Shown here: one piece after another, positions 44,401-63,915 of the stretch
Numbering within the stretch: the stretch's first letter is position 1
Layout of the letters: the number at the start of each line of letters is the position of its first letter
Notes under the pieces: generated by a model
Told to the model about the DNA's origin: nothing
Seen by the model: only the letters and a program-made list of their open reading frames with translations
Databases searched by the model: none
DNA from: Tubulanus polymorphus
Lineage: Eukaryota; Animalia; Nemertea
Assembly (NCBI RefSeq): GCF_964204645.1
Contig: NC_134027.1
Location: 25,196,560 to 25,260,559 of the forward strand
Length of the DNA stretch: 64,000 nucleotides
Reading direction: 5' to 3'
Translations under genes and position numbers: made by a program

Positions 44401-47400
44401 CAAAAGAGCCTTCATACAGAAATGACATATAACAATGACATCAGAAACGGTTCCAGACAAAATATGAGTTCTACAATTTTTGGCTACCGATACCCGGTAT
44501 TGAGACTTATTTCCGTGAGGGAAATACCCACAATACATGTACCGGTACGTACATACCAAAAAAAAATCCAATTGAATTTTCACCCGATTTATCAAACTGG
44601 TTTTTCATTTTTCGAACCGACTATTGATTACGAAACAAAAACAGATTTTTAAACATGTTCTTCGCGGCTAGCAACTAATGTAAATATTGTGCCGGTTCTA
44701 CGGTCATAACATAATCAACGCCAATAGACGGTTAAGAAAACTATGATATCCCACTCGAATATTAGTCACAATTAGCACCGGCTTCACTGCTGTACGATGA
44801 ACAACAATACTGAATTCAACAGTTTTTAGTTAATTCAACTTTTGGATCAAATATTTGTTCAATTACGATGAATTTGAAGAGGTTATATGAGATTGTCAAT
44901 AATAATGCTGTAGTCGGTTTGAGGTTCGCCATCCGTCAATCTATGTCATCATTTGTCATCGGTTTCATCTAATGATTAATCTATTCCCTAATGTAATGAT
45001 TATTGATGTCATTATGCAACTATTATTACCCTACAGAACAACTCCCTTCCGCTCTCCACCTGCCTATCCTCTTCCATTCTCCACCTGCCCATCCTCACCC
45101 CCTTCTTTCTTCATCCCTACTCTCTGCTTTCTACTTCTACATTTCCCCTATCCACCTTATCTTTATCTGCCTCTCTACCCCCTCCCCCTCCCATCCCCTC
45201 TCCCCCTCCTCTACATACATCTCCCCTATCCACCTCTTGTTTCTCTATCTGCCTCACTCTCACTACGAGGACCCCCGACATTGATTAATCACTGAAACAC
45301 TTATCTCGACAGTAGCAGACAGTATTAATATTGATTTTTCCGTCATCATTCATATCTCAGAAGACCTCTAAAGATACCTCAACCATTTATTCACTCGTCG
45401 TTTCATTAATGTTTGCTCTGCTGATGGTATATCAGTCACATTCATAAGATTCACGTATTTCACAGTTGTAAAGTTAAGATTCTAGACGCCATATTGTAGA
45501 GATTAAAGAACGGAGTCTCACTGAATTTACAGCGGGGAAGTCAAAGATCGCTGAGGCTTAACTCAAAATCTATTTGTTCACTAAATTTCTAGAGCAATTA
45601 TGGTAGACTCCTCTTAAATTGGTACGGTTTATCTCGGTAAACCATAAATGCACTGGTTTTATAAGGAAATCTTTATCCGTTACACTACATAAACTCGGTT
45701 TCTGATTTGGTAACACCTAATTAAGTAACAAAAAGATCCTGGTTCCAACTGTACTGATTTAGGCGTAGTCTAATCTACAACTACTTAACTATCTAATTGT
45801 CTATTTCTCAAATTTGAAGGAGTTCTCGGTGTTTGCTCAAATAAAAGCGAAGTTTTTAATAATCAAGGACCAAAATAAATCTAGGGTTTTTATCAACAAG
45901 AAATAGGTGCATAAGGAATTTTAGGGGTTTGAACACTAGCGCGAAAGTTGGAAAAAAGAAAGTGTCATCTTACCCATCAATCTTACTCAGATTATATTCC
46001 ATAATCGTATCTCGCGCGTGATTGGCACGTACAGTTTCTGGAACAAACAAAACAACAAATTCTAACAATAGAACAGAAATAAGTGTTTCACGAAAATTAT
46101 CGGCAATCGAAAATAAAACGCCGTACCTATTACTTCAGTGTGTATTCCGGCGTGTTTCAACAAAGGGGCGATTTTTTCATCGTAGATTTTAGGACCGAGT
46201 CTTTTTCCGCTGTAAGGATTTATAAACACCAGAAGACTCTTCGGTCGACGGAATTCTACAATAGAAATCTAGGTTACATCAGAAAGGGGCTAAAGCCCGA
46301 GGAGGTCTGACACGTTTAAATGACGCCAGGCTTCAGCCAGATTGAAGAACTCTCGAAATGTCACATTCACATTTTCTCACAAGAAATTACCCGGATTTTG
46401 AAAGTATTGCGCATAATTTTTCCAGGCTTTTTTTCATATCCTTCGCATTGTTTTTCCGGATTTTTAAAAACATTTTTCATACGAAGGTACAATAACACAT
46501 GCGGTGGTTCCTGATCGCTATCAGGACTGATAAAGATAAAAAATTTCTTAAAACTTTAAACACAGCTCACGCATAAATTCAGACCACAATGGAATTTGGC
46601 ATATTTTAACAAGACACTTTTCTCAAATTCTTCATACATTTTCATGATTTTTCATAAGTTTTGAAACAGATTTTTTTCAAAGTTTTTCCAGTTTTTCATC
46701 AATCTCCTAGTCCGAGTCTAAGAATAACGAAATGGCAAATTTTCGTACCGTTTGAGTTGAGTCGATCCTGTATCTTTTTAATCCACAGTTGACAGGTCAG
46801 CGCGTCGCGACACGAGAACGTTATTTTTCGATCCCTCCATTTGTGTTTCGGCATCCGTTTCAAAACCCACAACGAGAATACGTTCGATTGTAGCGACGTC
46901 ATTTCGTTGCCCTTCGAGTCTCGATGACCTTGATGTTTCGGCTCGGACGCCACGTACACGACCTCGCGTAAATCAACTGTGTGAACATCGTGTTCTATAA
47001 ATTATGCAATCATAAATGAATATCACGAGTTTGAATAATTTTTGGCTATAGAACTAAGTTGGTCTTATACCGGTCTTAAGTCTAAGCCATGACTATGCAA
47101 CAGGCCCCTGAAGTTGTCTTAGATCTTAAGACTGGTATTAAGTTGTAAGAATCTTACAATCTTGAAGATTTACTAGGCCCTATAGAACTTTTTTGGTCTT
47201 AGAACAATCTTAAATCTGGCTTCAAGAAAAAAACTAGATTTTCTGGAATTGACTATTTTGGAATAGGCCACTGGGAATATGTATTCTGGAATTGAATATC
47301 CCAAATTAAGTATTCTGCAATTGAGCATTTGGAATTGCTCAAAACAGGAATTGAGAACCGTGGTATTTTGGATTTTCTGCCAGACTGGACATTCAGGAAT

Positions 47401-47989
47401 TGCAAAATGCCTGAATTGAGTACCGGTATTCCACTGAAACAGAATATTTTGTAAACGCTAATTGTTAGCATTGTGTATTCTGGATTATGTATCCCGAATT
47501 CACTCATTTCCGGAATTGATTCCAGATGGAACAATTCATTCCAGCATGCAAATTATTATTAGGTCAGTGCCCTCTTGTTCCTGATACAGGATAAAATGGA
47601 ATTAACTCAATCCAATGGATAGATTGAATGTAAATGGATAATTAGCAAGTCTTTCGTAACAATATCGTTAATCGAGCCTAAAAATTAGAGAATTTGATCA
47701 GTGATAACTTACTGAGAACAGGATCTGTAGCAGTTGGTGTATTGTATCCAGTTGCCGAATGTGGCACATCCCAGTAGACAGTCGACGGTGTCAGCGTCAC
47801 CAAAAATGTCCTATTGTTAATTTCCAGGTTCGACTGTAACAGCATACCGACTGTCATCGCGGAAGATGCCATCCCACCGCTGCCGTCTTTTATTTTAGGA
47901 TGATTATTTTGACAGGTGTTGATCGAGCACCCTCTAACGTCGCATTTGCGAACTATTAATCCCAGTCGTCTTACTGTTGATGCCAACAT
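35415..47989 (-). CDS. CERK: Ceramide kinase
   Basis: Exons: 47713-47989 (or ATG 47872), 46749-46994, 46127-46255, 45974-46037, 43626-43771, 42275-42349, 40473-40625, 39865-39970, 38863-38936, optional 38744-38770, 36320-36525, 35968-36149, 35415-35550. Motifs RPKSLLVFINPYSGK, ANHARD, VGGDGMFSE, IPAGSTN, MGYGYYGDV..SE.FRWMGP.RYD, CxxxCxxC (CMHNCYAC), HLGDGTVDL, SVWNCDGE, HCQLIPLFARGIE. Confidence 0.95.
36957..37085. mobile_element. Harbinger-like MITE, family C
   Basis: CAG|ggtccagtttcacgaaaaagtt ... aactttttcgtgaaaccgggcc|CTG; degenerate copy ~1366-1472. Confidence 0.7.
37554..37691. mobile_element. MITE family B copy
   Basis: CTG|gggtcagtcgcacagtc ... gactgtgcaacaggccc|CAG. Confidence 0.75.
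38744..38770 (-). CDS. Candidate 27-nt frame-preserving microexon of CERK
   Basis: Minus strand ttttcgttttagtag|ACACTGAGGGTGTATCGCTGTTAGGAG|gtaaac; phase 1-1; encodes DTEGVSLLG. Confidence 0.55.
39085..39370. repeat. Degenerate ~38-bp tandem repeat
   Basis: aaaattagttcattttcaattactttcaatctagaatc variants. Confidence 0.75.
39495..39711. mobile_element. MITE of the 61882-62101 family
   Basis: aaattgataccttgtttctc ... acaaggtatcattt ... gcctta. Confidence 0.65.
40097..40320. repeat. Dispersed repeat; second copy at about 45600-45825
   Basis: tagactcct..taaat..gtac ... aactgtact.atttaggcgtagtctaa ... ttgaaggagtt shared. Confidence 0.6.
43772..44265. repeat. Degenerate ~55-60-bp tandem repeat abutting the CERK exon 5 acceptor
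   Basis: ctgaaccctgaaaatagaaaacccttt..aacctttagaaaacattc units. Confidence 0.85.
45040..45270. repeat. Pyrimidine-rich low-complexity tract
   Basis: C/T-rich with repeated cctatccacct; explains the spurious Pro/Leu-rich ORFs. Confidence 0.8.
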
Positions 47990-48576
47990 TTCTTTCGACG
48001 TTCCTATTCCTAAATTCGGCGCGATTCTGATTTAAATACATCGCTGAAACGATATTTAATTATCTATTCGAGTTTTCATCGGTTGATAAGATTCCAAACT
48101 TAGCGAAAATTCAAAAATATTCAAGAAAGATGTAAAAATCCACCAACCCGAACGAAATCCTAAATCATCCCAATCCGTGATTTCCATATAATCCATTTCC
48201 GTGACTTCCTCTTCTGCGGTTGGGATTTTAAAAAGGTCATTGTGGAGTATATAAATCTAAATAACAAATTAACTTAATTGTATTTTTCTCTTTACTTATC
48301 TTTCTAAATCAAACTAGTACGCAAACCACAAAGTCAAAGCATTAGTTTAGAATGTCAGTATTTATTGCTGAATTGGTCCACCCGGCATTGATTTCATATT
48401 TGGTGCAAAACGAAGGTCGCGTGGAATCATGCCATATCCGCGCGCACGCGCACTGAAGCCGAAAACCGCCATGTTGACAACTAGTCAATGAATAATATTA
48501 TTTGACAGCGGCACAAGTTTCGATGTCGTAAGACGATATTTGAGGCGCGAATGTGAAGTATTTTCGGGGTGCTGTT
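47990..48576. promoter_or_regulatory. Divergent promoter region CERK / TBC1D22
   Basis: Start codons about 590-700 bp apart, head-to-head; NRF1-like gcgcgcacgcgca (48440), YY1-like ccgccatgttg (48466), ETS-like acttcc (~48204). Confidence 0.6.
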
Positions 48577-51500
48577 ATGTCTGGGTTCGGAAGAGATCAG
48601 AAGTCAGATCTCGGCGGTCGAGCAACATTCTGGAAGAAAGGGAAAACAGTTCCGGGAAGGTACGTCAATAATATACAGCTAGTCTGAGTTCATAACGTTC
48701 AGAAACTCTCAATATGTTACGCGAGTAATTCAGGTATCTTGGAACTGTAGAATTCTGTTAAGGCAACAGTTAGTCTCATTTGCAAAATCCAGTATGGGAT
48801 GCCACATCATGATCACGGCTGCTGGCTTGGTGCCATTTTCCAGCACAATGTTCGGGGCACAATCGAATCCCTCCACTCCACCAGTCAGTCGGTCTAGATA
48901 CATTAACCTCTGCTTTTGGTCTGTGTTTAAGTTCCACGATCAGATATATTCACAAACCACAAAAGTTGGCATAAGCCCATCTGATTATTATGATGAAGGC
49001 TTACCACCAACGATAAGCGACAACATTAACAAACAAATTCCCTTCCTTCCTGCTGACCTATCACTATTATTGACATTGGTTGATTATTGTCTGTCTAACC
49101 TTCCCCTCTGTGCGACATTTCGATTCAAACCTAAGTCAATTAATTTTTGATCTAATTTTAATATGCATCCAATTTGTTCAGTAAGGATTTTGCATTTAGA
49201 AATGCCTCGTACCGCCTCTAAGGTATAATAAATTGGATCAGTTAATAGTGTAAAATGTTCTTTATTTGCAGTATTAAACCGGTTTATGGAGCTCAACATC
49301 CTCCAATTCAAGAAAAAATCGGCAGGTAAACAGGACAATTCACCAATTTAAACGTTCAATTATGACAATTATGTGTCTTAAACTATTTACACATTTATAT
49401 TGCACATCATACTTCCATAAATAGAATTATGTTAAAATGTGTTTTAGTGACGCAGCAAAAAAAAAATGATACGCCTAAAACCTTGGGTCAACAAGTGAAT
49501 AAATACAAATCCTTTACAGCACTAATAGGGGCCCTATGACCCCTTGATTTTTGTCTAGCATATTATGTATGTGTTTAAGGTTAGCGGATTGATTATTAAT
49601 TAGCTCAGGACGGGATGGGGGACTTGCCATTTCAATTTGGAATTTTTTTTCTGCGAAAATCTAAATTTTCGCTTGTTTTTATTTGCAGCGGTCCGCCGAC
49701 GCCGAAGAAAGAAGACACGGCCGCGTCGCGTCTGAAAAACAAACGCGACTCGTTCCAGGATTTCGAGAACGATACGATCGACGCGTGGGACGACGGCGAT
49801 GACGACGTCATGTTGATGGCGCATAAAATGTCGCTACGAGACGTTCACTCGTCGGCGATGGCCGTTCTGAATAATCATAGTCAGCAGATATTACAGAATT
49901 CATCGCAAACCGGGCGCGTCGGCGTCCGCGGAGGTAGTAAGACTGCTGTTGGTGCTGCTGGTGCTGGTGAGAAAGACGACGCGGGGGTGAACGAAAATGA
50001 AAAACCATCACATCAAAATGGTGCTGAAAATAACCAATTATCGGAACGGGGTTAGTGAGAAAAACTCTGGGGGGAAATTCTTAATGTGTTTGAAGCATTT
50101 CTAATACTTTAGGTGAAAGTTTCTCGAAGACTCTCGATAACAATGACAGATCTGAATATGACTACTTTTTGAGAGTAGTTTCAACTGTTTTTAAGAGCTC
50201 AACTTCTCCCAAAAATAACAAAATAATCGCAAAGTCGTAATAGTCTGTAGTTCATTTTCAATTAAACTACTATTTTTGATGTGAAATCACTTTCATTTCT
50301 GGTGAAATCTACTACAATATAGAGATATCAGGCAGTGTGATTTGCTTAAACGATTTCAGGTCTTGGAACTCTTTAAAAAGGCTCCAAAATAAAGATAGGA
50401 TATACTGATGAGTCTCCTTATTGAGATGGGAGATTTGTTAAGAGGAAAAAAGCGTAAAAATGCGTTTTATTTTCAGGTATGGTGCCAGTTTCGCCTCATT
50501 CTCCAGGAGTATCGGGTCCCGGTGTCGGGGTCAGACTGAACTACGGTCTGATATTACCCAAGTCTAGTCCGATGCAATACGTCAATCTTCCCGAACTGGA
50601 CAAAGAGAAGAAAAAACTCGAGAAGTTTCATTTGCTCGTCGACGCATCAACGACGGACCTCAGTAAGTTTGAAGCAAAAACGTTTGAAATCTCATTTTTC
50701 TAAACGAGAAAATTAATCTCAGGGTTCCTAGAACTCCTTGATTCCTTTAAAACTCTTTCAAAGCAGAAAATGATTTTAAACATGCATGAAACTCCTTTGA
50801 TTCGAGCAAAATGTCTGAAACTCTTTTAAAATTCCTTCAATTTTATGCAATAGGCTAGTGGTTTTTAGTTGTATAGTAAACTATGCCTCAATCGGTATTG
50901 TCAGGACCAGGATTTTTTCTTATGTTGACTTATCGGTTGGTTTATTTGTGTACAGGTCAATTGAGAGAAATGAGCTGGTCTGGAATTCCGAAATCAGTCC
51001 GGCCTATCACGTGGAAACTTTTATCAGTAAGTTCTCTTACAATATTATCAAACTAGAGTTGGGTTGCTGGCCTAGTAGTAGTAATGTGATTTTGTGTCAA
51101 AAGTAAGCTTTCGAAAGTCAAATAATGGGTTTTTTCAGATCAGGGAATTCCAGATTTATCCCTTCAGGAAAATTTAGGGAATTTGAATTCTTGATATCTT
51201 GTTTTTCTTGCTGGGGACGAGTGGAACAAGGAACCTCTTGATATTTTATTTAAGAAAAAGCCCCCACTGAGGATATCTCATAACTTAATCAGTGAATTTT
51301 CGGTGGATGGTCAGGGAAATAAAGAATTTTGGGTTCCCTATTTGTAAGAGCCCTCAAGTTATACCTTAATTAGCTTTTCCATATATAAGCACATTTAACC
51401 CATAACTTATTTGAAAATAGATTTGTAATGGATGCCTTGTTGTAGGGTTATCTACCGCCGAGTTTCGAACGGAGACAGCCGACATTGGAGCGTAAACGTA

Positions 51501-54500
51501 ACGAGTATTTCAGTTTCGTCGAGCAGTATTACGACACTCGACATCAGGAGATACACGAAGGAACCTACAGACAGGTAATTACTCAAATATTCCCAGTCGA
51601 CACGTATGCATTTTTCAATATGATATGATTTTGATATTGCGCAGAGTGGCCACTCAGCTGGACATCAGCCGGGGAATTTATTCATTGAAATGGTCTGGGA
51701 ATCTTGTTGAAAAGCTATAGTCTATGTTTTCCGTACATATATGACTGTGTTAATTGATTTGATTCTTATTGGGTTAAGTCAGGGAAGAACTTAGATGAAA
51801 AGTGTTTAGAAAAAGATATAAGTGTCCACCTTGTGATACACATTCTGTCAATGGGGTACCGGCAACACTACTGCGGCAAGTGAAATTCCATCCGAATTCA
51901 CCAGGTGTCGCTTATGTTCAGTACAAGCTGGATTTCTTCTTTAACTAGATTAAAATCTGATGATTCTATTTTACGAAAATATTTTGAAAATGATCGAGCC
52001 ACATACGAGGTCTGAAGATTTTAATCCAAGTTGATCGTGGTTTGCCGTTGAGATCAAAGTCAATAATGAAAATGAACTGATTTTGATCAAGTACGTCTGA
52101 TGTGGCGCCATCTATAATGGGATAAGCGATGTGCCGGTACCCTATTCAATCGTTTATTTTTTTCGAATGATCTTACATGTTCTTTTTTATTCGATTGAAC
52201 GACGAGCGGATCATTTTAGAAAATTGAAAAAGATTTTCCTCGACAGATTTGATGCGTGTCGTGTATGTGTGATCTATCAAACACATGTTACTGTCAGAAA
52301 AACTGCACTAATTCTCGACATTACGACTGAGTATAGATATTTGTGTTAACCCTTTGGCACCCGCACCCTAAAATCAGCGGTCATTTTACACATGTACATG
52401 TACCTTAAGACAGTTCAAGTATTAGCTGAGGAGACTATTTGGCCCGAGTCATATTTGGTCCATCATTTATTCGCAATCGTGAAAAGATTACACAACCTCC
52501 CGCCTGACGACCATTTTCAAAATACATAACTGAGCATTTTGTTGTGGGGTCTTAAGTATCGTGATTAAAAAGGACTTTCCAGCACTCGGTAGTCGGTGCT
52601 GAAGGGTTATATTTATTTCTAGAAATTGACAATAATTTTCAATATTAAGTAACCATGAACAATGTATTCATAAATTATATCCACTATTTCTATTCCCATA
52701 AAGGACTCGCAGGTAATGATATTCTATCATCCATACGTTTCAAATCTACCCCCGTAGAAATTATCTATACAACCATAAAAAAAACCAGGTTTTTGTGGGC
52801 AGTTTTTTTTTTTGTAATTGTAAGTACCACATTGTGCGCTAACTAAGTAGCACGTGTGCATGCCTGCGTCATTGTGCTATTATTGTGAATTGAATAAATC
52901 GCGAGGAAATACGTAGCGTATTTTCGTCCGGGAAACACGTGTGATATTTTTCAAAAATGAAATCTCAATTGAGCAAAAATCTAATATCGTATTTGGTCCC
53001 AATTTGAATCTTGTTCTTTAATACATACCGTAATGGTCGCAATTTTTAAGTATCTTGAAAATGAAATTGAAAGCTCGCTGAAATTGAAAGTCTGAATTCA
53101 CTATTTCGTTGTAACTGTTTTAGCACGCAGGCAATGTTAATGAACTAATGTGTTAATGATTGAATGATGATGTTGTGTTGTGGTTTGGTTGTTGACGGGT
53201 GCCGTGGATCTATGTATGTAAAGTATCGCCCTGGCTCAACAGTTCACCGGTCAAAACGTTATCTCCACACTTTCGATACCCGCGTCTGGTTAATACTAGA
53301 ATTTCTGAAAAACTTTCTGCCTGCACTGAAAACTAAATTTAAATCTTATTTTCAACATTTATTTTGCAAAAAATGAGTTGATTACTTTGGACCCAGTTCT
53401 ACCGTGATTAAGACGCAATGCTAAAACTGGGCTCGAAGTCTAAGCCATGACTATGCATCAGGCCCCTGGACCTAGTTGCACATAAGATTTAAGACAAGTC
53501 TAAGACTATCTAAGTTTAGTAGACATATATCTTACAAAAGTCTTAAGATCTAAGACCACATTTTGACTTATGGTAAGTCAACAAGACCCTGGACTTGCAT
53601 TTAGAGTCTGAGATACGGAATTGAGCCTCGGTGTCACTTTCTACGTAGGTGCATGTTGTCGGGAGTCAGTAATAAATTGTTGTGAAGTTGATTGTTGGTA
53701 TAGGATGCTGCTGCTGCTGCTGCTGCTGCTGCCGCTAATGGTCGATGTGTTCATTGTTTACAAATATTTTCTATAGAAGGATATGTGATCCCTGTCATAT
53801 TGATTTTTTTCTGAATCTGATCCAGAGATATGTAGTGGAGTATAAGTCGTGTGCTGGATATACCCCAGTTAATACCATAATGTCATCGGACGACATCAAT
53901 AACTAGGATCACTGAACTGAAGTGAAATCCAAGCAAAAATATTTTCCGAAGCAATTTAGGCTGTGATCTTTGCGTTGGACACAAAGTTTTCATTTCAAGA
54001 GTTTTTCGAAGTTGTTGGTTTCCTCGACTTATCAATTCATATATTCAATTGAAGACGAACCAATTTCGACTCCAATGATCGACTATTGAAAGTCCAAATC
54101 AATCTGGTCTGCACCGGGGCTTGTGTCAAATTTGACCCGTGCCTCACTATACTTAAACCGATGCGATGAGTGAAGTGAGTTACTACCGGAACCAGTTAGT
54201 AACCCACGCGGGTCATAATTCCACACGGCCTGGTCCGATGTTTTTGGTCGGGCCAAATCGAGCGCTAAAATAGTTGTAAGATTCAGTAATGTAATCTCTC
54301 TCTAAAGAACCAAGCGTCTGCCATTGTTCATACGCGTATGTAATAGATGCTTGTCGCTGGTTGATATTAACGTGCGTTCGTCGCTTGTCGCATGGCTATT
54401 GTTTTTACAGATAGGTATCGATATACCTCGTATGAATCCCTTACTGCCCCTGTTTCAACAGAGGGTCGTTCAGGAGGTGAGTCGTCCCTCGGAAAAAAAA

Positions 54501-57500
54501 ATGAAACACGCCACTAATAACGTTGGGGGCGGTATTAATGGCGCATGGTACCTATATACCTACCACCCTTAACTATCACTTAATCATATAGGCTATAGTT
54601 ACTATGATGTGGATCGCAAACTCTTCTATGGAAAAAGTGCATGTTTTCGGCGTGTCTGGTGGCACTTGGTATAAACTTTCTTCTCTATCTTACAGCTACA
54701 GTTGTTTCCCTACCATTTGAGGGATCGGTCTCTCAGCCTTTACAACCCTATATCGATATGGTTCTTTTCATCATGTAGAAAAGACTAGGACCCATTTAGG
54801 GTGGTTAAGGCCTAGATTTTTAAGACCAGTCTAAATGTAATGTAGTTCTACAATTGGGTCCTAATATTTGAAATGATTCATAATCGTGGACTTAGATTGC
54901 AACTGTATAACAAGGTCATGGTGCATTATAAAGACCAAGTCTTCATGGCTTCACTTTTGGCTGCCCAATTTAACCGGTCTTTAGAATATTGGTCCATTCA
55001 AGGCTCCGTATTAGGCTACCACTTGTTTCATGAAACATACTTTTCAAATAACAAAAATGTGGTTGAAAGATAGGAAGAGATTTTATGATTTATATATTTG
55101 TGTACGACTGTAACTATGTCGGTTAATGGTGGTGTCTACAGCTCGAGTTTGACAATTGTTGATGTATAAATTTCACTGCTTTCCGGAGTGAAATTTCGCT
55201 CACAACTGCCGTCAAACCGAGTTATGGAATATGAAAAACTTCTCAAACGGAATACTGTTCCACAGTGCTGATGGAAGTTGAGTTAACTAACTCACTGTGG
55301 AACTGGATACTGTTCCACAGTGCTGAGTGAAGTTGAGTTAACTAACTCACTGTGGAACTGGATACTGTTCCACAGTTCTGAGTGAAGTTGAGTTAACTAA
55401 CTCACTGTGGAACTGGATACTGTTCCACAGTGCTGATGGAAGTTGAGTTAACTAACTCACTGTGGAACTGGATACTGTTCCACAGTGCTGAGTGAAGTTG
55501 AGTTAACTAACTCACTGTGGAACTGGATACTGTTCCACAGTTCTGAGTGAAGTTGAGTTAACTAACTCACTGTGGAACTGGATACTGTTCCACAGTTCTG
55601 AGTGAAGTTGAGTTAACTAACTCACTGTGGAACTGGATACTGTTCCACAGTTCTGAGTGATGTTGAGTTAACTAACTCACTGTGGAACTGGACCCTATGG
55701 TGCTAAATTTGTTTAGGAAGTTTTTCTTGGGTTCAAGAAAATATTGAGACAAAAATGAGACTTGTTTCTGCGGCGAATTCACGTTCCAGTAATTTGATCA
55801 CACTTCGTAGAAAATAGTGAAAATACTCGCGGCAGTAACAATGAAAAAACATGGACATGCACTGTTTGGTGTATTGACAAGCAAAGTCATCATCATTTTC
55901 AAGTATTACAGCAATTGAAATTAACCGTAATTTTAGATCCCCCGAAATCTGGATCATTTGAATTTGATTTATTAGTGTATAGTCTATGAAACGAGCCTTG
56001 CGACAGATGTGTGATGAAATTACTGATACAATTCATGTAAATAAGGCTTTATTCGTACGTACCATATATATATATATATAATATTTTAATCGGCACTTCG
56101 TGTCGTGTCATTTGATTGTCTCTTTATATTCGTATGTGCGTATCTGGTAAACAGGGTTTTATGCGGTAACCGGCACGTATCTGCCTTTGGTGTATTTTGT
56201 AGATTCAGAAAGACCTGTGCAGAATGACTTTGCTCACAAATAGACCCAAAGCCAGTGAGGTGAGTGATGACTGGACCTCGCGTACGTGCGTGTGCTGTTC
56301 TCCTCTTCAAGTCTGCGCTCCGTCTCGACTACCTTTCTTCCTCCCAAAACCCTTATTTCTTCCTCATTCAGTCCTTTCATAACTTTCCAAAACCCATATT
56401 GAGGACCAGGTAAGAAAGACTTCTTTAACCCTCTAAGTGCCGCCTGTCTAATGGCATTTATAGGGTTAACAGTAATTCACTGTCAAAGGAAATAATTCCG
56501 AATTGTTGGCCGAAAAAGGGGCAAGCTATCTCTACCTGTCCCGCATACAAGTACTAACAGCTCCTGCAGCCTCCTCGTGCTGGGTCCGTGTGCAACATGA
56601 AATAGTGAGATGTAATCACAGTTCTATTTGAACTGCTGTTACAGTATTTGAACTGTGAATCCCACTTCGAGTAGAGCCATCTCTATAATTACGGCAGTAA
56701 CGCAATATTGACATAACACTTCCCGCACTCCACTCCGCCGTAGCTGGTTAGATACATTTGATATTACATCGAACAACAGCCAAGGTTTATAATTATTCAG
56801 AATCGATGATTTCTGTATCAGAATCTATTCGTGGAAACGGATGATATACCGGGTCCAGTTGCAGAGTCGAGGCTTGGATCGAAGACCAGTCTTTTACCAA
56901 ATTAGTCTTATACCAGCTTAGTTGGAAAAACCAATCTAACAATATCTCAGTCAAATCATAAGATTTGAGAAACAAATTTTGGGCGCGAGTCGTGACTGTG
57001 CAGCTGAGCCCAGGATAGAAGTGGAAGTTGTACTGGTCAAATGATACCTAGATAAGATAACAGTGTGTGTAATTTTTGCCCCAGTATTTCAATAGAATGA
57101 AATGCCTGATTATAATTGATGATAATTGACATTCTGGGCAATAGGTGGCAGGTATACAATTTTTTCGCACCTACCATCAACTCGGCGGCTATTAGATGGC
57201 AAATTAGCTCTAGTTATTACGTAATAAAAAAAAGTAACGCGTTTTCTCTTGATTTTTTGCGACAGATTTTTGAACGGATCTTGTATATATGGGCGATACG
57301 CCATCCGGCTAGTGGTTACGTGCAAGGAATGAATGATCTGGTCACACCTTTCTTTATTGTCTTTCTTACCGAATTTATAGATAATGGTGAGTACATCCAA
57401 CTCTCGCGTAAATATAACCTGTTGCCAATTTAGGGTCCCGACGAGTCCTTCGTTCCGTAAAAACTCCTTAACGATAAGTACTTTTCAAGAACATTTGAGC

Positions 57501-59180
57501 TAGAATTGTTTGTGAAACTCGGCGCGGAATGTCTTGGCTCTAAAACTGCGGCCCAGGACTGGATTCAGAATTGATGATCTCGGTGTTGTTATTGTAGATG
57601 TGGAATCAGATAATTGTGATCTGAGTCAATTACCTCAGGAACAGTTGAACGTCATCGAGGCCGACTGTTACTGGTGTTTATCTAAACTGCTGGACGGAAT
57701 ACAAGACAATTATACATTTGCTCAACCCGGTATTCAAGTGAAAGTCAACGCCTTGAAAGAACTGGTTAAACGCATCGATTGTAAGTAACTCTCGATCACT
57801 TCGCCCGTCAGTAACTAGGTGTTCAAACTTAATCATCAGGGGCCAGTTAATCAAAAGTTGGTTCGAGTTAACCGGTGGATAGTTGGCATGGTGACAATTG
57901 AAAGTTCATTGTTGTGTTGGTATTTATCCACCGGTTATCTTTAACCAACCTTTGAGCAACTGGGTCCCAGCTGTAGAACTGGCGCCTGGGGCCAGTTGCG
58001 CAGTCATGACTTAAGTTCATAAGTGGTCTTAAATCTTAAGACCAGTCTTTTAAGTTGTTAGATTGTCTATAGAACTACGTTGGTCTTAGACTGGTCTTAA
58101 GTCTAAGCCATGACTATGCAACCAGCCCCAGTTTTCACTGTCTGAAGTGACTTACAGCTTGCATTGCTAGGTTTCCTTTGCTTTGCCCCCCCCCCCGGCA
58201 GTTGCGCGATCGTGTTTGACGTTCACGTTTTTGCTATCGTTTTCTAGTGAGTTTACACCAACACTTGGAGGAACAATCTGTAGAATATCTTCAGTTCGCG
58301 TTTCGATGGATGAATAATCTGCTGATGAGAGAAATTCCGTTGAGATGCACGATTCGACTCTGGGATACATATTTAGTATGTATTCACTTACGTATAATTC
58401 ACATCATAAGTCATAAGTTATCTTTAACTTCACCAAGTCGTCCAGCGTTTTATTTTACAAAATCTCCTTATTATAAATCATTTCGTAGATAAGATGGACT
58501 TTAAGTAGCTAGATAAACTGGAACTTCGTTAAAACGATTATATAGAGGTCTTACTTTGACTGCGCCATATCGGCGGTCAATCCCCAGGTCCCAGTTTTAT
58601 AGACTGGTATCAACTTTAACCCAGTGGCTAATTCAATTCAAAATTGAGTTAGCCTCCGGATTTAAGTTAACTGCCAGTCTGTATAACTGACCCCTGGTTA
58701 TCTTCGGTTGTTTATGGCAAGTTGCCAGCAACGGTTTGCAAACAAACTACGTGTCAAGTGTGAGACCTTTATACGAATACGTGTATTCCACTTGAATGAA
58801 TTATTAAACCTGTCAGTCCAACAGTCAAAACATTTTTCTCAGTGATTTTGTTTTCGATTGTTTTCAGTCTGAAATTGATGGATTCGCGTTCTTCCATTTG
58901 TACGTGTGTGCTGCTTTTCTAGTCAAGTTTTCTAAGGATCTGCAACGGGAAAGAGATTTCCAGGTTCGTCGTCGCGAGTCTCCGCCTTCTACCCTTCTAT
59001 CTATGTTTTAGATTTTGATTATATCGGCTGTTTGTCTCGTTTCAGGGTTTGATGATCATGCTACAGAATTTACCGACATATCACTGGGGAGATGAGGAGA
59101 TCGGACTTTTATTGGCGGAAGCTTACAAACTGAAATTCATGTTCGCCGACGCGCCCAATCATTTAAACCCGGGCAGGTGA
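48577..59180 (+). CDS. TBC1D22: TBC1 domain family member 22 (Rab GAP, Gyp1-like)
   Basis: Exons: 48577-48659, 49272-49325, 49689-50050, 50477-50662, 50956-51026, 51446-51574, 54411-54476 (or 56203-56259), 57266-57386, 57598-57780, 58248-58375, 58868-58963, 59046-59180. Motifs FWKK..PGSIKPVYGAQHP, DAWD, SWSGIP..VRP.TWKLLSGYLP, IxxDxxR, WAIRHPASGYVQGMNDL, IEADCYWC..LLDGIQDNY, QFAFRWMNNLLMRE, RLWDTYL, LQNLPT. Confidence 0.96.
52347..52609. mobile_element. piggyBac-like MITE, different interior
   Basis: TTAA|ccctttggcacc ... ggtgctgaaggg|ttat. Confidence 0.55.
53706..53736. repeat. (TGC)n microsatellite
   Basis: About 9 tgc units in TBC1D22 intron 6. Confidence 0.9.
55253..55696. repeat. 55-bp tandem array, 8 copies, each unit internally palindromic and related to MITE family A termini
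   Basis: tactgttccacagt(g/t)ctga(tg/gt)gaagttgagttaactaactcactgtggaactgga; ends in ggaactggaccct. Confidence 0.95.
56203..56259 (+). CDS. Candidate mutually exclusive arginine-finger exon (7b) of TBC1D22, IQKDLCRMTLLTNRPKASE
   Basis: Acceptor tattttgtag, donor GAG|gtgagt, phase 0-0 like exon 54411-54476, and begins with an intact IxxDxxR(M). Confidence 0.75.
57840..57967. mobile_element. Harbinger-like MITE
   Basis: CAG|gggccagtt ... aactgggtcc|CAG; related copy ~29635-29765. Confidence 0.65.
57989..58128. mobile_element. MITE family B copy
   Basis: CTG|gggccagttgcgcagtcatg ... catgactatgcaaccagccc|CAG. Confidence 0.75.
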
Positions 59181-59184
59181 TCGC

Positions 59185-59322
59185 GGGCTAGTGATTGCTA
59201 GGACATCGTGCAAGCGATTGCAGGCTAGTGATCGCTAGGACATTGAGCAGGTGATCATAGGCTAGTGATGTAATCATGGGCTAGTGATTGCTAGGACATT
59301 CTGCAAGTGATTGTGGGCTAGT
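59185..59322. repeat. Short tandem repeat just after the TBC1D22 stop
   Basis: ggctagtgat(t/c)gctaggacat recurs three times plus partial units. Confidence 0.75.
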
Positions 59323-63369: not shown

Positions 63370-63915
63370 CCCTTCTATCGACTTCATCAACTCCCAATAT
63401 GCATCTTCGAAATTCACTTGTTAATGGGGATAAAATGACCAAATTCCGTTTTTAGATGTTCTAGTTCATAATAAATATTCTCATTTGATTTCCTCGGTCT
63501 ACCGTAAACCTGCTATAAGTAGTAAAGGAAAAATAATGCAAGTAGGATCCAGAATGAGTGGGTTTCGTTCGACGCTAGCTCTCTGTTTACCAATGTCACT
63601 CTCGCGCCTACCTTGGATTTTCTCAAACGTAAACTTCCCTCGTTGGACTTCAATTATGATATTCCTACTGATCGTATCATTGAATTAATTGGAATTAGCG
63701 CTCAGAACCCCTTTTTCAGTTTTAATAATTCATATTTTGAACAGGTCTTTGGCATGTCCACGGGGAACCCCCTTAGCCCCATTTTAGCAAATTTATTTGA
63801 TGTGTTGATGACGTTCTTGAACTTATTCCTTGCGATTTTGATATTGATTTATTTCTCTCATTCATAACTCTTTTTACCCCGATCGTTGAACTTCACATTT
63901 GAATTGGAAGTTGAT
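63370..63915 (+). pseudogene. Fragmented Penelope-like reverse transcriptase
   Basis: IPFLDVLVHNK..ISSVYRKP (~63443-63511); FD.SSLFTNV (~63567-63598); ELI..NPFFSFNNSYFEQVFGMSTGNPLSPILANLF (63680-63798); frameshifted and out of normal order. Confidence 0.8.

Follow-up and report, generated by a model that had tools for sequence, protein, structure and literature searches.

Two alternative exons for the catalytic-arginine segment of TBC1D22 in the nemertean Tubulanus polymorphus

The stretch of DNA analysed here (the window) comprises 64 kb of the genome of the nemertean Tubulanus polymorphus (NC_134027.1, 25,196,560-25,260,559; coordinates below are window positions) and contains the gene TBC1D22, in which two adjacent exons, 7a and 7b, each encode the segment that carries the catalytic arginine. 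In a search with exon 9, T. polymorphus TBC1D22 was the top animal match. The gene model with 7b is the same as RefSeq isoform X2 (XP_074645248.1) at 516 of 516 aligned residues, and the model with both exons is the same as isoform X1 (XP_074645247.1) at 538 of 538 residues. The protein contains the RabGAP-TBC domain PF00566 and matches the human TBC1D22B and TBC1D22A chains (hereafter 22B and 22A) with E ~1e-150 and yeast Gyp1 with an E value of 1e-82. Judged by these matches, the gene encodes a TBC1D22/Gyp1-type Rab GTPase-activating protein (Rab-GAP), nearest to TBC1D22A/B and Gyp1, for which GAP activity is predicted. Such proteins turn off GTPases of membrane traffic. The catalytic motifs of conventional TBC GAPs are IxxDxxR and YxQ (PMC13090580), and the corresponding fingers of Gyp1p are Arg343 and Gln378 (PMC3674391). 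Arginine and glutamine fingers are present in each Tubulanus isoform: Arg302 and Gln334 in the 7b form, and Arg302, Arg324 and Gln356 in the form with both exons.

Tubulanus TBC1D22 has two alternative exons for the catalytic-arginine segment, and both are genuine; an initial annotation of this DNA had already given their positions, translations, phase, splice sites and arginine finger correctly. Exon 7a (66 nucleotides (nt), acceptor tttttacag) and exon 7b (57 nt, acceptor ttttgtag) are both of phase 0-0, begin after an AG that lies behind a pyrimidine-rich tract and end in the same donor, GAG/gtgagt. Across all three forward frames, the window has two matches to the pattern [IVL]xxDxxR[MT], one at the start of each exon and each directly after AG. 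Adjacent, equal in phase, sharing motif and donor and aligned to the same 22 columns, 7a and 7b are homologous tandem exons, and the reading frame runs through to the stop with either exon, with both and with neither. Exon 7a is of the ancestral, 22B type, as had been proposed, and its product is 82% identical to the canonical segment of a priapulid. Exon 7b is set apart by K at motif position 3 (K-type), by LC where IP or VP is usual and by a loop three residues shorter. Among 143 AG..GT frames in three introns, we found no convincing third alternative exon and no convincing counterpart of the 6-7-residue insert of Lineus and bivalves described below. A search with the 7b region gave back the query alone (1 of 1 candidate), a consequence of the word filter.

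Table 1 Positions of the TBC1D22 exons and of other features in the window
Feature	Position	Strand	Basis or remark
TBC1D22 exon 1, ATG at 48577	48577-48659	+	Model identical to RefSeq proteins
Exon 2, 54 nt	49272-49325	+	AG/GT bounded; adds 18 residues present in RefSeq and missing from the first model
Exons 3-5	49689-50050, 50477-50662, 50956-51026	+	Gene model; joints in X4
Exon 6	51446-51574	+	Phase-0 end, within the helix running on into the arginine finger
Pyrimidine tract of 7a	54380-54407	+	Other sequence in its place in one S2 allele
Exon 7a, ancestral-type 22-residue arginine-finger segment	54411-54476	+	RefSeq X1 (with 7b); among canonical exons in tree
Exon 7b, derived 19-residue K-type arginine-finger segment	56203-56259	+	Spliced in X4 contig; both RefSeq isoforms
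Exon 8, glutamine finger YxQ (YVQ)	57266-57386	+	Gene model
Exons 9-12, stop in last	57598-57780, 58248-58375, 58868-58963, 59046-59180	+	Gene model; X4 joints
Ceramide kinase gene	46062-47001, about 47678-48031	-	PH_CERK E 2.7e-10, DAGK_cat
55-nt minisatellite, 8 copies	55252-55692		In the 7a-7b intron
37-nt repeat, 2.5 copies	59179-59269		3' untranslated region, beginning right at the stop codon
Frames resembling a decayed retrotransposon reverse transcriptase	about 63434-63867		By eye; no Pfam match

Four sequencing runs of one study contain the stretch, none of them recorded as RNA. Run X4 is treated as RNA solely since one of its contigs is spliced; runs X2 and X3 have no splice joints among those listed and look like DNA from the sample of X4 (S2). 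The spliced X4 contig (1778 nt, depth 102) joins 51574 to 56203 and 56259 to 57266, the two junctions that the initial annotation had put forward for 7b, so that in this contig 7b is spliced in between exons 6 and 8 and 7a is skipped. The same contig has at least seven further GT..AG joints of the gene, and at 7b the loose ends of X4 contigs match the end of exon 6 and the start of exon 8. Exon 7a is covered by no X4 contig; contigs drop minor forms, so this is no evidence that 7a is silent. The RefSeq cluster of the species consists of two models, one with 7b alone and one with 7a and 7b. The expectation that 7b would prove to be used and conserved is borne out by the spliced contig and by 7b-type exons in Lineus, in a third, nemertean-like contig and in a tapeworm.

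The spread of the two forms among animals was assessed from protein models, the tallies for Lineus, molluscs, Owenia and amphioxus being made by eye. Two of three Lineus models have the variant and one the canonical segment. The 47 molluscan models divide into 27 variant, 9 canonical, 10 with both and 1 with neither, the annelid Owenia (n = 4) into 1, 2 and 1 of the first three classes, and amphioxus (n = 7) into 2, 2 and 3. Eight of the 15 listed members of an oyster cluster of 18 are variant and seven have both. Lamprey has three models with a 21-residue variant and four canonical ones (n = 7), teleost 22A (15 of 16 members listed) has 4 variant, 3 canonical and 8 with both, and shark 22A (n = 12) has 5 variant (2 shortened), 0 canonical and 7 with both. 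In a search with a double segment from reedfish, a query that selects for doubles, the 21-residue exon precedes the 22-residue exon in all 120 listed of 719 matches; these come from sharks, rays, a chimaera and bony fish and nearly all are named 22A. The variant was not seen in a thin sampling of coral (7 of the 15 listed members cover the region), horseshoe crab (3), chiton (2) and Ptychodera (3). Among 150 eukaryote representatives, 130 could be scored; the segment has 22 residues in 118 of these and K at motif position 3 in 6, one of them a tapeworm TBC1D22, and 22 residues is, on this sample, the eukaryote norm. The tapeworm protein (Echinococcus; P0383, P0516), identified as TBC1D22-like in an Atlas search, has a 19-residue segment of 7b type as the only form in both records, and nemerteans and flatworms may have this 19-residue segment as a common character.

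Some further differences around exon 7 were seen in these models. Just before the exon 7 segments, Lineus (P0123) and scallops and oysters (P0009, P0125, P0024, P0151) have an insert of 6-7 residues with a Gly-Leu core, which is likely a separate microexon common to Lineus and bivalves because in oysters it also stands ahead of the canonical exon. In two shark models (P0533, P0542) the 21-residue exon is cut to 18 residues. Models from Aplysia, Xenopus and alligator (P0146, P0112, P0120) skip the arginine-finger segment and, if real, would be GAP-dead forms.

The order of the two exons is not the same in all groups: the canonical exon comes first in Tubulanus (in the genome) and in molluscs (in both-exon models), and in amphioxus, fish, sharks and Owenia it follows the variant. 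In a tree of 39 exon segments over 22 columns, nemertean and tapeworm variants group together (support 99/98) and then with molluscan variants (100/99), and the 22A-type exons, with lamprey, are set apart (91/100). The best constrained trees place the K-type exons with Owenia (+2.3) and amphioxus with the 22A-type (+1.5). Pair scores of Tubulanus 7b are 48 with the tapeworm, on average 24 with molluscs and 22 with 22A-type exons, and 10 with canonical exons; for Lineus the figures are 28 against 13. Between the lamprey variant and those of nemerteans the scores are only 2-7. Because 7b groups with the K-type exons of molluscs and tapeworm and the exon order is reversed relative to chordates, 7b is probably the product of a separate duplication and its likeness to the 22A exon a parallel. 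The initial annotation had suggested 7b as the counterpart of the 22A exon, which is probably wrong, though not refuted (p-AU 0.071 in the approximately unbiased (AU) test). Separate spiralian and chordate duplications are favoured by these data over a single origin at about two to one.

In humans, the canonical 22-residue form is found in 22B (PDB entry 6d0s) and a 21-residue form in 22A (PDB entry 2qfz), and the segments that the initial annotation quoted for the two proteins agree with these chains. Protein models of lamprey and amphioxus point to a pre-duplication gene with both exons. Of 74 tetrapod 22A models, 71 are variant-only, two are without the segment, one is without the region and none is canonical. 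The earlier proposal that the pair had been divided between the vertebrate paralogues is thereby largely supported for the chordate pair; the split appears complete only in tetrapods because shark and bony-fish 22A still carry both exons. A gene tree of the part behind exon 7 did not separate 22A from 22B, the two records named TB22B being fragments on long branches, and the human 22B motif is in no record of the gene tree set. Four both-exon records named 22B cluster among 22A sequences, the one from sturgeon being 99% identical to 22A.

In the predicted structure of the 7b form, helix 290-301, built from exon 6 together with the opening half of 7b, ends at Arg302 and is followed by a loop and by helix 310-326, which begins with the tail of the exon. 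The root-mean-square deviation (rmsd) of this TBC domain from 2qfz and 6d0s is 1.7-2.0 Å, and the 7b form is predicted to fold as a normal TBC domain. With TBC1D22A/B and yeast Gyp1 (PDB entries 2qfz, 6d0s, 2g77 and 1fkm) it shares PF00566, IxxDxxR, YxQ and a predicted fold at an rmsd of 1.7-2.6 Å. In the both-exon form the helix comes from the first exon, 7a, and residues 303-326, which include the second arginine, have a predicted local distance difference test (pLDDT) score below 50; the model thus predicts the arginine helix of 7a with a 22-residue insert of low confidence. Exchange of the exons alters residues on both sides of the catalytic arginine and the loop length (22, 21 or 19) and keeps I, D and R. 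Of the two human proteins, 22B is pulled down by GTP-bound RAB1B and 22A negligibly so, and transport from the endoplasmic reticulum to the Golgi is sped up by silencing of 22B only (PMC12631847). The swap may change Rab choice or rate, a view that gains weight because RAB1B binds human 22B but hardly 22A.

Taking these lines of evidence together, we favour, with a probability of roughly 0.6, a tandem exon pair in which 7b is spliced in alone and 7a is likely a minor alternative; the pair would tune Rab choice or rate and reflect separate spiralian and chordate duplications followed by a vertebrate split. The exon that encodes the arginine-finger helix and the following loop is duplicated in tandem. 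The derived copy, 7b, is spliced in alone, and the ancestral 7a is likely a minor alternative, included alone or ahead of 7b. The swap likely tunes the Rab engaged or the speed of the reaction, with the catalytic Asp and Arg retained. We infer that 7b stems from a spiralian K-type duplication common to molluscs and a tapeworm; a separate duplication of this exon, with the variant in front, likely took place in chordates. Once the vertebrate genome had duplicated, the ancestral exon was likely retained in 22B and the variant alone in tetrapod 22A, with both kept in fish and shark 22A.

Several observations weigh against this account: (i) The RNA support is one contig of one study, perhaps the very data that RefSeq used, and neither the RefSeq models nor the X4 contigs of Tubulanus include a 7a-only form. 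(ii) A clade of 7b with the 22A-type exons is 4.0 log-likelihood units worse, which is not significant, and a tree that unites all variants in one clade is likewise not rejected (p-AU 0.571). (iii) The exon tree has low power, with 22 columns, an unsettled bootstrap and better trees missed by the free search, and 7b scores nearly equally against molluscan and 22A-type exons. (iv) The K-type exon of Owenia lies in the order typical of chordates, a clean fit to neither scheme. (v) The least secure step of the split is the loss of the variant in 22B, as it rests on the human chain and on absence among the 120 listed of 719 matches, and no true fish or shark TBC1D22B is among the records obtained. 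(vi) The segment is a putative Rab contact and specificity switch, and human 22A and 22B differ at many other sites. A more far-reaching version holds that at least two independent bilaterian duplications each produced a splice switch at the Rab-facing active site, that the chordate switch became fixed as two separate genes, and that the 21/22-residue segment is why human 22B, and not 22A, binds RAB1B and drives its breast-cancer phenotype; we put this forward only tentatively.

The initial annotation read the two exons as mutually exclusive. The X4 contig, which skips 7a, agrees with this; the RefSeq pair (7b-only and 7a+7b, two of two models), the both-exon models common elsewhere and two shark-type contigs with both exons do not, and strict mutual exclusion is doubtful. 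Sixty proteins have assembled contigs as their only source, and 47 of them cover the region: 21 are K-type only, 19 have a 22-residue non-K segment, 5 a 21-residue segment and 2, of shark type, both. Assembled spiralian sequences thus as a rule use a single exon, and co-inclusion is real at least in sharks. At the locus, no device enforcing exclusion (short intron or distant branch point, frame shift, U12/U2 clash, RNA pairing) was found: the 7a-7b intron is 1726 nt long with an AG-free zone of 46 nt, co-inclusion is in frame with the same donor on both exons, and tests for RNA pairing of the exon flanks gave p < 0.05 in 4 of 28 pairs (best p 0.015), about chance level. The inverted repeats in this intron were traced to the 55-nt minisatellite. 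The minisatellite unit contains an internal, hairpin-like inverted repeat, and similar sequence occurs elsewhere in the runs.

These data bear on the view that the exons are a single ancient bilaterian pair under strictly mutually exclusive splicing, with 7b the orthologue of the vertebrate 22A exon. It draws on the presence of pairs on both sides of the bilaterian split, on the chordate exon order of Owenia, on the two unrejected constrained clades and on the tail motif PK, which is enriched in nemertean variants (2 of 3) and in distinct 21-residue segments (24 of 41) relative to 22-residue segments (3 of 170); both exons together were found in 0 of 21 K-type assembled contigs, 0 of 7 lamprey models and 0 of 3 Lineus models. 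The reversed order in nemerteans and molluscs, the placement of 7b with molluscs and the low lamprey scores speak against one origin. RefSeq X1, 10 of the 47 molluscan models, the two shark-type contigs, and a long intron between frame-neutral exons with no flank pairing that survives 28 tests speak against strict exclusion, and we consider this view unlikely.

An equally unlikely possibility, in our estimate, is that 7a is a fading leftover in Tubulanus, 7b being the working exon and the swap of little regulatory meaning. The tapeworm 19-residue form and the tetrapod 22A 21-residue form, as apparent working exons, would be parallels, both Echinococcus records being 19-residue only, and no 7a-only RefSeq model and no X4 contig over 7a exist. 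In addition, one allele of S2 has at least 255 letters of foreign sequence immediately upstream of the CAG at the 7a acceptor, with a loose end before 54408 (X2, X3); in X2 the allele with foreign sequence is present at depth 24 against 17. This is likely an insertion replacing the pyrimidine tract, and it may lower 7a use in that animal. Against decay, 7a is intact, similar to the priapulid canonical segment and provided with a consensus donor, and it is invariant between individuals: between the reference and S2 there are no differences inside 7a or 7b and four in the 7a flanks, all small numbers. The pair also persists in Lineus and across molluscs, and the blank over 7a in X4 proves nothing.

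Least probable of all is that co-inclusion is the regulated event, with 7a ahead of 7b adding 22 residues by the active site as a brake or off-switch on GAP activity: the sole 7a-bearing model in Tubulanus is 7a+7b, oysters and sharks show the same two classes (variant and both), two shark-type contigs carry both exons and the added region is modelled at low confidence, but Lineus, scallop, mussel, Aplysia, Octopus, amphioxus, lamprey and teleosts have models with the canonical exon alone, alternative exons are frequently strung together by automated annotation, and low model confidence is not inactivity, the Arg and Gln fingers remaining in place.

Tandem duplicated homologous exons are a known class. 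As in catalogued tandem duplicated or mutually exclusive homologous exons (PMC8373072, PMC9741552, PMC5740500), the TBC1D22 exons are adjacent, homologous and of the same phase, encode a central segment, and are ancient and conserved. Unlike the catalogued cases, their co-inclusion is in frame and annotated, exclusion is not strict and the copies differ in length (22 and 19 residues); the supplements searched for these human catalogues do not contain TBC1D22. Separation of splice isoforms after gene duplication has been described for 11 events, including CALU, MARVELD3 and U2AF1 (Abascal et al. 2015, PMC4494069). TBC1D22 resembles these in that an ancestral two-exon gene (lamprey, amphioxus) likely gave way to one exon each in tetrapod 22A and human 22B, and differs in that the split is asymmetric and late, with both exons kept in fish and shark 22A, and lies at the catalytic finger. 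It is not named in the text of that survey or in the two supplement files searched (one further file lay outside the search), which we attribute to the survey starting from human pairs, as no human pair is evident here.

Supplements of PMC4417111, PMC9741552, PMC4494069, PMC8146666, PMC5740500 and PMC8373072 gave no match, one file each of PMC4417111 and PMC4494069 lying outside the search, which may bear on novelty. Full-text searches, whose coverage excludes subscription journals, found no description of the TBC1D22 exon pair. A human event 'TBC1D22A-62725-ME' is listed in PMC12886300 with its exons unnamed, and an exon-skip event, also without named exons, appears in PMC8590485. Both exons are already present in the RefSeq annotation of Tubulanus (together in X1, 7b alone in X2), where nothing marks them as copies of one catalytic exon. 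TBC1D22 is a new case of two known phenomena, tandem homologous exons and the separation of splice isoforms.

Outside the exon pair, TBC1D22 lies head-to-head with a ceramide kinase gene; a PDB search with the ceramide kinase piece gave no match. We take human CERK and TBC1D22A to be likewise adjacent and head-to-head. That both map to 22q13.3 is documented (PMC12111097). This arrangement suggests that CERK-TBC1D22 is an old gene pair and that 22A occupies the ancestral locus. The remaining features of the window, a short repeat behind the stop codon and frames of retrotransposon type, are given in Table 1.

How TBC GAPs select their Rabs is a standing problem, and the exon pair offers natural swaps of about 20 residues around the catalytic arginine with the rest of the protein fixed. 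Ready-made pairs from worms, molluscs, amphioxus, lamprey and fish are available for testing the role of this segment in Rab choice or rate. They also provide a specific test of why RAB1B is bound by human TBC1D22B and hardly by 22A, 22B being a marker of poor prognosis in breast cancer (PMC12631847). With TBC1D22, splice isoform separation gains an example that would escape catalogues built from human exon pairs, and the 19-residue form of nemerteans and the tapeworm may serve as a character for spiralian relationships.

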